Assembly: GCF_003334765.1 (NCBI RefSeq)
Contig: NZ_QOWT01000025.1
DNA from: Escherichia coli
Lineage (GTDB): Bacteria; Pseudomonadota; Gammaproteobacteria; Enterobacterales; Enterobacteriaceae
DNA: 58,632 nt
Reading direction: 5' to 3' (one strand)
Below the pieces are notes generated by a model that was not told the origin of the DNA, ran no database searches, and worked only from the letters and a program-made list of their open reading frames with translations. How positions within the stretch are numbered: the first letter of the stretch is position 1; each line of letters opens with the position of its first letter. Made by a program: the position numbers and the translations under genes. Positions 2,077 through 3,930 of the stretch are shown piece after piece.

Positions 2077-3930
2077 ATGAAAATGACTTTGCCGTTTAAA
2101 CCCCATGTGCTGGCGCTAATTTGCAGTGCCGGGCTTTGTGCCGCCTCTACCGGGCTATATATAAAAAGCCGCACAGTGGAAGCGCCTGTGGAACCGCAAT
2201 CGACACAACTGGCTGTGTCTGACGCTGCCGCGGTTACGTTTCCTGCAACGGTTTCCGCACCTCCCGTAACACCCGCCGTCGTCAAATCCGCATTCAGCAC
2301 TGCACAAATAGATCAATGGGTCGCGCCCGTCGCGCTGTATCCCGACGCCCTACTTTCGCAGGTGCTGATGGCATCAACCTATCCGACAAACGTTGCTCAA
2401 GCAGTGCAATGGTCGCACGATAATCCACTTAAACAAGGCGATGCTGCTATTCAGGCGGTATCTGACCAGCCGTGGGACGCCAGCGTTAAATCACTGGTGG
2501 CCTTTCCACAATTGATGGCATTGATGGGCGAAAACCCGCAATGGGTGCAAAACCTGGGCGATGCTTTTCTGGCCCAGCCGCAGGACGTGATGGACTCGGT
2601 ACAGCGATTGCGGCAACTGGCGCAACAAACCGGCTCGCTGAAGTCATCAACCGAACAGAAAGTTATTACCACAACGAAGAAAGCTGTACCGGTAAAACAG
2701 ACAGTCACGGCACCCGTCATACCATCCAATACAGTTTTAACTGCCAACCCCGTCATTACAGAGCCGGCAACAACCGTCATTTCCATTGAGCCCGCCAATC
2801 CTGATGTGGTCTATATTCCCAACTACAACCCAACCGTGGTTTACGGGAACTGGGCCAATACTGCGTATCCGCCGGTTTATCTGCCACCACCAGCCGGAGA
2901 ACCGTTTGTTGACAGCTTTGTACGCGGATTCGGCTATAGCATGGGCGTTGCTACCACGTACGCACTATTCAGCAGCATCGACTGGGACGACGACGATCAT
3001 GACCATCATCATCATGACAATGATGATTATCATCACCACGATGGCGGTCATCGTGACGGTAATGGCTGGCAACACAACGGCGACAACATCAATATCGACG
3101 TCAACAATTTCAACCGTATCACCGGTGAGCATCTTACTGATAAGAATATGGCATGGCGGCACAATCCAAACTACCGTAATGGTGTGCCCTATCATGATCA
3201 GGATATGGCAAAGCGGTTTCATCAAACCGATGTCAACGGCGGAATGAGCGCCACGCAATTACCTGCCCCAACGCGCGACAGCCAGCGTCAGGCGGCAGCA
3301 AATCAGTTTCAGCAACGAACACACGCCGCACCAGTCATTACACGAGATACCCAACGTCAGGCAGCGGCACAGCGGTTTAATGAAGCTGAACACTATGGGA
3401 GCTATGACGACTTCCACGACTTCAGCCGTCGCCAACCACTGACCCAGCAACAAAAGGACGCCGCTCGTCAGCGTTATCAGTCCGCCTCGCCTGAGCAGCG
3501 CCAGGCAGTTCGCGAGAGAATGCAGACTAACCCGAAGATCCAGCAGCGAAGAGAGGCAGCGCGTGAGCGCATTCAGTCCGCCTCGCCTGAGCAGCGCCAG
3601 GCGGTTCGCGAGAAAATGCAGACTAACCCGCAGAACCAGCAGCGAAGAGACGCAGCGCGTGAGCGTATTCAGTCCGCATCACCAGAGCAGCGCCAGGTGT
3701 TTAAGGAAAAAGTACAGCAGCGCCCACTGAATCAACAGCAACGTGATAACGCCCGCCAGCGTGTTCAATCGGCATCACCTGAACAACGTCAGGTTTTTCG
3801 GGAGAAAGTTCAGGAGAGCCGCCCACAACGTCTAAACGACAGTAACCATACTGTCAGGCTGAATAACGAGCAACGGTCAGCAGTATGCGAACGTCTCTCT
3901 GAACGTGGAGCAAGAAGACTGGAAAGGTAA
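2077..3930 (+). CDS. yacH: DUF3300-family protein YacH, 617 aa, with signal-peptide-like N-terminus, His/Asp-rich low-complexity tract and C-terminal tandem repeats
   Basis: ORF track 2077..3930 (617 aa, MKMTLPFKPHVLALICSAGLCAAS...); length and position between acnB and lpd match K-12 yacH. Confidence 0.9.
   Translation: MKMTLPFKPHVLALICSAGLCAASTGLYIKSRTVEAPVEPQSTQLAVSDAAAVTFPATVSAPPVTPAVVKSAFSTAQIDQWVAPVALYPDALLSQVLMASTYPTNVAQAVQWSHDNPLKQGDAAIQAVSDQPWDASVKSLVAFPQLMALMGENPQWVQNLGDAFLAQPQDVMDSVQRLRQLAQQTGSLKSSTEQKVITTTKKAVPVKQTVTAPVIPSNTVLTANPVITEPATTVISIEPANPDVVYIPNYNPTVVYGNWANTAYPPVYLPPPAGEPFVDSFVRGFGYSMGVATTYALFSSIDWDDDDHDHHHHDNDDYHHHDGGHRDGNGWQHNGDNINIDVNNFNRITGEHLTDKNMAWRHNPNYRNGVPYHDQDMAKRFHQTDVNGGMSATQLPAPTRDSQRQAAANQFQQRTHAAPVITRDTQRQAAAQRFNEAEHYGSYDDFHDFSRRQPLTQQQKDAARQRYQSASPEQRQAVRERMQTNPKIQQRREAARERIQSASPEQRQAVREKMQTNPQNQQRRDAARERIQSASPEQRQVFKEKVQQRPLNQQQRDNARQRVQSASPEQRQVFREKVQESRPQRLNDSNHTVRLNNEQRSAVCERLSERGARRLER

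Follow-up and report, generated by a model that had tools for sequence, protein, structure and literature searches.

The yacH locus and the organization of its product

The stretch of Escherichia coli DNA analyzed here (the window, 58,632 nt) carries yacH on its plus strand at 2077..3930, an open reading frame of 617 aa that encodes a DUF3300-family protein and shows 100% identity to yacH as annotated in K-12 strains. The gene lies between acnB on one side and lpdA, with which it is convergent, on the other, and it was found in some version in 5426 of the 5426 complete E. coli genomes searched. The yacH/lpdA intergenic region contains, at 3942..3971 (no strand assigned), a hairpin between A-runs and T-runs; read directly from the sequence, it is likely to be a bidirectional terminator. 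A simple terminator scan did not list this hairpin and returned only chance minus-strand hairpins inside the repeats described below.

CpxR has been reported as a regulator of yacH, whose transcript decreases upon protamine exposure and whose deletion gives better survival to protamine than the wild type (PMC9600279). A rob deletion strain has less yacH transcript than BW25113 (PMC7537768), and a frameshift has been described in Salmonella yacH, within its GATCAT tract (PMC10048834). A literature search for yacH or b0117 together with repeats, VNTR or MLVA gave nothing on the array, the term 'yach' matching mostly author names.

A previous reading of the window, made without database searches (hereafter the sequence-only reading), had assigned the product to the DUF3300 proteins, in agreement with the match to Pfam PF11737 that we find at aa 75-333 (2299..3075, plus strand; E 1.5e-78). 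This match covers model positions 2-227 of 227 and leaves the repeat array outside the domain, which AlphaFold2 models with a pLDDT above 90 across most of its length. No NCBIfam family model matched YacH, and a Foldseek comparison of the full model with the PDB gave zero matches at E <= 0.001, the best one having an E of 0.44.

Upstream of the domain, the N-terminal segment MKMTLPFKPHVLALICSAGLCAASTGLYIK (2077..2166, plus strand) is basic and hydrophobic and could be a signal peptide or a membrane anchor: both the sequence and the AlphaFold2 model point to a basic n-region and, after it, a hydrophobic helix of 20 residues, with a helix predicted at 9-22. Distant homologues carry lipoprotein-type lipoboxes at the equivalent N-terminal place (LVVGC in P0129, LSAC in P0224 and AGGC in P0237). 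The N-terminal sequence and these homologue lipoboxes together suggest an extracytoplasmic location, in which YacH would be exported and membrane-anchored, with everything after the N-terminal segment lying outside the cytoplasm. A His/Asp-rich tract, DDDDHDHHHHDNDDYHHHDGGH (2986..3051, plus strand), contains direct repeats at 2992-3039 and a copy-variable 7-aa unit, DNDDYHH, present in 0, 1, 2 or 3 copies depending on the allele (P0050, K-12, P0063 and P0062, respectively).

A tandem array of four 96-nt units at the 3' end of yacH

The 3' end of yacH carries an array of four in-frame tandem units at 3442-3825, each of 96 nt and thus of 32 aa. The sequence-only reading had recognized four tandem units there, which is correct, and had given them a period of 90 nt (30 aa) and a span of 3463-3822, which have to be revised. 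The four copies found by direct-repeat search are spaced by 96, 96 and 96 nt, TRF returns a period of 96 with a score of 379, and self-identity inside the array reaches 77% at a shift of 96, compared with 27-33% at neighbouring shifts. At a shift of 90 it is 27%, which is background. The start formerly proposed falls 21 nt inside the first unit. Tested as a coding minisatellite, the array shows head-to-tail units and a period well above chance.

The units all lie on the plus strand and are not equally related to each other. Units 1 (3442-3537; aa 456-487, TQQQKDAARQRYQSASPEQRQAVRERMQTNPK) and 3 (3634-3729; aa 520-551) were delimited by repeat search and unit-by-unit comparison. Unit 2 (3538-3633; aa 488-519) resembles unit 3 in its 5' part and unit 1 in its 3' part. 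Unit 4 (3730-3825; aa 552-583) is the most diverged, with 62-69% nucleotide identity to the others, from which it differs mostly at third codon positions. Nucleotide identity is 84% between units 1 and 2, 78% between units 2 and 3, 69% between units 3 and 4, and 62-68% for the remaining pairs. The near-identity previously attributed to all units therefore applies only to units 1 and 2 (84%, rising to 92% over 221 nt when the register is optimal); identity in the other pairs ranges from 62 to 78%. The youngest duplicated stretch detected by TRF, at 3477..3697 (plus strand), comprises 2.3 copies with 92% matches over 221 nt, and the longest exact in-register run of the K-12 array is 30 nt.

Further repeats are found on both sides of the array. 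Upstream, the short repeat pair noticed by the sequence-only reading is indeed present, at 3271..3309 (TRDSQRQAAANQF) and 3340..3378 (TRDTQRQAAAQRF), both on the plus strand; the two copies are 69 nt apart with 74% nucleotide identity, and orthologues outside Escherichia keep the pair, including the motif of its first copy, in other genera. In allele P0001, a 45-aa duplication encloses the second copy of this pair. Downstream, local alignment detects in the C-terminal tail (3859..3927, plus strand) a degenerate half-unit copy, LNNEQRSAVCERL (to be compared with SPEQRQAVREKM), with a score of 29, where shuffled sequences average 16.6 (sd 3.4) and 0.5% of them score as high. Comparison of orthologues shows that the motif of this C-terminal tail is conserved across genera.

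Copy number among strains

The array varies in length between alleles, as had been anticipated from its repeated structure, and E. coli alleles with two, three, four and five units exist. Four units are present in K-12 and L003, and three in L001, L002, L004, L005, L006 and L007; the extremes are L019 (strain GmF052), whose protein of 557 aa has two units, and P0006, whose protein of 648 aa has five, the first three of them identical. The four-unit length was found in 32 of 60 and in 20 of 40 records, two samples taken at even spacing from the ranked hits in 5,426 complete E. coli genomes, and nearly all other records had the three-unit length. Judged from these samples, about half of complete E. 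coli genomes carry four units and most of the others three.

All the K-12-like and O157 records listed in these samples have four units, as do the Shigella sonnei and S. flexneri proteins among the hits listed. Three units of 32 aa are found in Escherichia albertii (L008), and L007, which also has three, is a divergent E. coli representative. A very divergent E. coli allele, that of strain AST85 (L021), has a period of 34 aa. Megablast gave one place per genome for three-copy alleles and two or three places for four-copy alleles; the extra places are more simply accounted for by off-register self-matches of the array than by paralogues.

How units are gained and lost

Unit-by-unit comparison of the alleles shows that their first and last units are positionally orthologous and that the units at the junctions are hybrid. 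The three-copy alleles fall into two different architectures. The L001/L002 type consists of units 1, 3 and 4, unit 2 being absent, and the L004/L005 type of units 1 and 2 followed by a hybrid of the 5' part of unit 3 and the 3' part of unit 4. In both L001 and L006, the first unit joins the 5' part of unit 1 to the 3' part of unit 2, and L006 as a whole, which like L001 and L002 lacks unit 2, corresponds to a K-12-like allele minus exactly one unit between units 1 and 2.

Gain of a unit can be followed in L003, whose second unit combines the 5' part of the next unit with the 3' part of unit 1 and shares with its neighbours an exact in-register run of 95 nt, which indicates a recent 96-nt tandem duplication. 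Unit 2 of K-12 has the same composition as the second unit of L003 and has diverged further, as expected if it were an extra unit produced by a 96-nt tandem duplication. The two three-copy architectures, the L006 deletion, the L003 duplication and the triplicate of P0006 show that copy-number events have been recurrent and independent. The reading frame is always kept because every change is a multiple of 96 nt.

These products suggest how the changes arise: neighbouring units would be exchanged in register, through unequal recombination or replication slippage, and units would be added or removed as a result. The hybrid junction units and the exact 95-nt duplication in one strain speak in favour of the expansion and contraction, by slipped-strand or recombinational events, that the sequence-only reading had proposed. 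Three units are probably the ancestral state in Escherichia, because both E. albertii (L008) and the divergent E. coli L007 have three; four-unit alleles such as that of K-12 would then have arisen by 96-nt tandem duplication. Alternatively, the ancestor could have had four units, both three-copy architectures being derived from it by deletion.

The encoded peptide

The four units together (128 aa) contain 29 Lys/Arg and 15 Asp/Glu residues, giving a net charge of +14, as well as 30 Gln (23%), 8 Pro and 16 hydrophobic residues. AlphaFold2 predicts in this region helices at 457-469, 472-484, 486-500, 504-515, 518-532 and 536-547 with a pLDDT of 77-88, a helix call that is essentially a single-sequence one, the alignment depth over the repeats being almost nil. 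Two short helices are predicted per unit, each opening with a proline that comes after a capping Ser or Asn (S-P-E-Q, N-P-Q-N). The tail modelled alone gives identical helices, a pTM of 0.28 and no confident packing.

That the repeats might form a coiled coil, as had been suggested earlier, would fit a region predicted to be helical and rich in charged residues. A proline break nevertheless occurs every 14-18 residues, and AlphaFold2 splits the array at every S-P or N-P into eight helices of 12-15 residues. Moreover, the hydrophobic residues, 16 of the 128, can be read from the sequence to form a narrow A-V/A...M/I stripe and not heptads. We regard a coiled coil as scarcely credible. As judged from these models, the repeat tail would be neither a folded domain nor a coiled coil. 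Foldseek gave for the tail model, whose low pTM of 0.28 makes this a weak test, a single match in the PDB, at E 9.4; PDB sequences gave for the repeat region chance-level hits only (designed helical repeats and mitoribosomal uL29m, E >= 0.5); and Pfam gave for the tail only sub-threshold matches to RskA_N (E 0.037) and DUF3106 (E 0.0056-0.057).

Another reading would see the repeats as a chain of helices of the LTXXQ type, like those of Spy and CpxP, each [S/T]PEQRQxxRExxQ helix standing for one LTXXQ helix; the tail would then serve the envelope-stress system in the periplasm, as an adaptor or by binding clients. To compare them with the repeat alignment by hhalign, the Spy and CpxP sequences were checked against the PDB, and the best local match does fall on the LTXXQ motifs of Spy (LTDAQKQQIREIMK) and CpxP (LTPEQQAVLNEKHQ). 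In addition, the motif [S/T]PEQRQxxRExxQ recurs in the conserved C-terminal tail, and yacH is reported to be under CpxR (PMC9600279). These hhalign matches, however, span only 13-14 columns with a probability of 0.6-1.3%, there is no Pfam LTXXQ match even at E <= 10, and neither the PDB sequence search nor Foldseek against the PDB recovered Spy, CpxP or a structural relative. Spy and CpxP are also long bent hairpins that assemble into cradle-shaped dimers, not strings of 12-15-residue helices. With an hhalign probability of about 1% and no Pfam or PDB sequence match, membership of the YacH tail in the LTXXQ family was rejected, and we find this reading quite unlikely; a purely functional analogy with Spy and CpxP would likewise be of low probability.

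The unit itself has an internal structure. Its two half-units, PQNQQRRDAARERIQSAS and PEQRQAVREKMQTN, align with a score of 31, whereas shuffled sequences average 17.3 (sd 3.6) and reach that score in 0.3% of cases. Orthologues from other genera repeat a related motif with a period of 18-20 aa: TPEQRQARRENVQQRVSxS in four copies in UBA5654 (L009), NPTAQQQQRRENAKSHLQ in about three copies in Kluyvera and related isolates (L010, L011, L013 and L016), and REAIKARHDNPTPQQQQ in about three copies in Enterobacter (L015). Since other Enterobacteriaceae amplify a related motif at other periods, the 32-aa unit of E. coli looks like the doubling of an older motif, of about 16-19 aa, that each lineage would have re-amplified with its own period.

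Selection and allele divergence

When the K-12 allele is compared with four other alleles, dN/dS is 0.06-0.16 over the repeats, where the alignment may pair non-orthologous units, and 0.05-0.13 over the DUF3300 core. Because dN/dS is low and the differences between old units are mostly at third codon positions, the peptide seems to be constrained, and the repeat region appears to be under purifying selection for its sequence while changes in its length are tolerated.

This bears on the possibility that the tail is merely a low-complexity linker evolving neutrally. The repeats would then have no sequence-specific role, slippage in a disordered region having produced them, and copy number would drift freely. 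DUF3300 tails are indeed not conserved between lineages and often carry unrelated repeats, the tertiary confidence of the tail model is low, alleles of every copy number from 2 to 5 persist, and one strain has yacH interrupted by IS1 while another has it frameshifted. A freely drifting linker is nevertheless hard to reconcile with a dN/dS as low in the repeats as in the folded domain, with the third-position bias of the differences between old units, or with a motif kept across genera. We consider such a neutral origin unlikely.

yacH is also an island of divergence. The K-12 and ST131-type alleles are 76-95% identical in the gene and 97-100% identical in its flanks, the allele of one strain is merely 56-82% identical, and K-12 differs from the divergent alleles L002 (ST131) and L004 by a dS of about 0.4. 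An apparent gap of 96 columns at 5431-5580 of the yacH-region comparison was set aside as an end effect of the alignment. Such divergence could be expected from an adaptive contingency locus, at which copy number or allele type would be selected through exposure to phages, colicins or host immunity, a change of length altering reach or recognition. Low dN/dS values, however, give no sign of positive selection, and copy number looks stable in clones, all K-12-like and O157 records listed having four units. The K-12 units, 62-84% identical with a longest exact run of 30 nt, are too diverged for high-frequency switching, and changes that are all in frame would not turn the gene on and off. A hypermutable contingency locus was rejected on the basis of these diverged units and of the four-unit K-12-like and O157 records, and we judge selection of this kind to be very unlikely here.

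A broader proposal would combine several of these elements: a Cpx-controlled YacH carrying a string of Spy/CpxP-like LTXXQ helices, the number of which would set its reach or multivalency toward an envelope partner, and whose deep alleles, set between near-invariant flanks, would be the outcome, in an exposed protein, of long-term balancing selection or of introgression. We hold this to be highly improbable.

Interpretation

Our results point to the array being, quite probably, an in-frame coding minisatellite that forms the basic C-terminal tail of a membrane-anchored, extracytoplasmic DUF3300 protein, and whose units change in register while the peptide they encode is constrained. The tail would be extended, flexible and positively charged, and could serve as a tether, a spacer or a multivalent contact for a negatively charged partner in the envelope. 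Basic and tolerant of length changes, it would probably act in the periplasm as a tether or binding tail.

As a minisatellite, the YacH array is an ordinary one; the finding is modest and involves no new mechanism. It nevertheless describes exactly, in terms of unit, register, copy range and mode of change, a length polymorphism that occurs naturally in a core, uncharacterised envelope gene of E. coli. The natural alleles with two, three, four and five units are a ready allelic series with which the function of the YacH tail could be studied, for example in relation to the reported protamine phenotype. In practice, length differences of 96 nt can mislead gene-by-gene typing schemes as well as short-read assemblies. 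For DUF3300 proteins in general, the results draw attention to an organization in which a conserved core is followed by a fast-evolving, repeat-prone basic tail.

Comparison with known systems

DUF3106, a Pfam family with no known function, is among the two best Pfam matches of YacH over its Gln/Arg-rich repeat stretch, although this match is below any accepted threshold. With the LTXXQ proteins Spy, CpxP and ZraP, YacH would share a periplasmic setting, a helix-starting [L/S][T/S]PEQ+xx+E motif, paired by hhalign with the LTXXQ motifs, and the reported control by CpxR (PMC9600279). It differs from them by its many short proline-separated helices in place of a single long hairpin, and sequence, profile and fold comparisons gave no significant match. 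Exchangeable apolipoproteins are built from proline-started tandem amphipathic helices of 22 aa with a hydrophobic stripe flanked by basic residues. The predicted tandem helices of YacH also begin with a proline and have a narrow hydrophobic stripe with basic flanks, but the likeness is one of analogy, without homology, and the YacH helices are shorter (12-15 aa versus 22) and far more polar.

The closest context is that of the DUF3300 family itself, which comprises 9,583 clusters at 50% identity (E <= 0.001) and in which conservation extends over the N-terminal anchor and the core but not over the tail. Of 104 distant full-length representatives, 23 have tandem repeats in their tails, with periods of 9-33 aa and unit sequences unrelated to one another. 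As in YacH, the other tails follow the conserved core, are basic and are rich in Gln, Arg and Ala, whereas the 32-aa SASPEQRQ unit is seen only in Escherichia and Shigella. Judged from these sequences, a tendency found throughout the family has taken a lineage-specific form in the E. coli array. It finally resembles the coding minisatellites of bacterial envelope and surface proteins used as MLVA-type loci, with which it shares units that are multiples of three nucleotides, strain-variable copy numbers, in-register hybrids and a preserved reading frame. Unlike these, the YacH units are long (96 nt) and diverged (62-84%), and their change looks slow and bound to lineages.

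Divergence of yacH between E. coli strains

Within E. coli, yacH forms an island of divergence. When the K-12 allele, which is that of the window, is compared with an ST131-type allele, identity is 76-95% across most of the gene (window 2133-3930), and it is 97-100% in the flanks, i.e., upstream and in lpdA (window 1683-2132 and 3932-5430). Between these two alleles dS is about 0.4 and dN/dS about 0.1. Over amino acids 331-392, there is no synonymous difference at all between them, which indicates that yacH alleles are mosaics.

A highly divergent yacH is carried by strain AST85 (L021, NZ_AP043644.1; 2501-4360 of the fetched locus), with 56-82% nucleotide identity to K-12 and a repeat period of 34 amino acids, present in 2.7 copies. 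As this allele adjoins a normal lpdA (95-99% identity), an import from another Escherichia lineage is suggested.

In-frame length polymorphisms

Two longer E. coli alleles carry in-frame duplications in the tail. That of 662 amino acids (P0001), found on 19 contigs, has a 45-amino-acid duplication that takes in the second short repeat (3340-3378 in the window) and the spacer, and that of 634 amino acids (P0049) has a 17-amino-acid duplication within unit 3 of the 32-amino-acid array (3634-3729).

The His/Asp tract (window 2986-3051), which looks like a putative metal-binding site, is a second in-frame length polymorphism of yacH. Its 7-amino-acid unit DNDDYHH is present in 0 to 3 copies across E. 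coli yacH alleles, and 13 amino acids of the tract are missing from the allele of one fetched locus (L003). In a Salmonella isolate, an 8-nt frameshift deletion in yacH (GATCATCA) has been described at codon Asp284 (PMC10048834).

Apparently disrupted copies and matches on plasmids

In strain SW071611 (H1, NZ_CM129855.1), the yacH match is split into two pieces across 2,631 bp, over an annotated IS1A transposase, and IS1 thus seems to have interrupted the gene. The yacH of strain Q5 (L020, NZ_CP127255.1) is annotated as a frameshifted pseudogene. From these two strains taken together, yacH appears to be dispensable in at least some strains.

Separately, when yacH was searched by megablast against 5,426 complete E. 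coli genomes, seven of the matching places were found to be carried by plasmids rather than chromosomes.

Downstream of yacH and of the tail of a distant homologue

Between the convergent yacH and lpdA genes lies a GC-rich hairpin with a flanking A-run and T-run (3942-3971), which looks like a putative bidirectional terminator; this hairpin was not among the results of a simple terminator scan.

In a distant DUF3300 homologue of 684 amino acids (P0130), the frame continues past the DUF3300 tail into a second signal-peptide-like segment and a further domain. This extension may represent an adjacent gene, either fused or mis-called, and is a hint that other bacteria have a conserved partner gene downstream of DUF3300.
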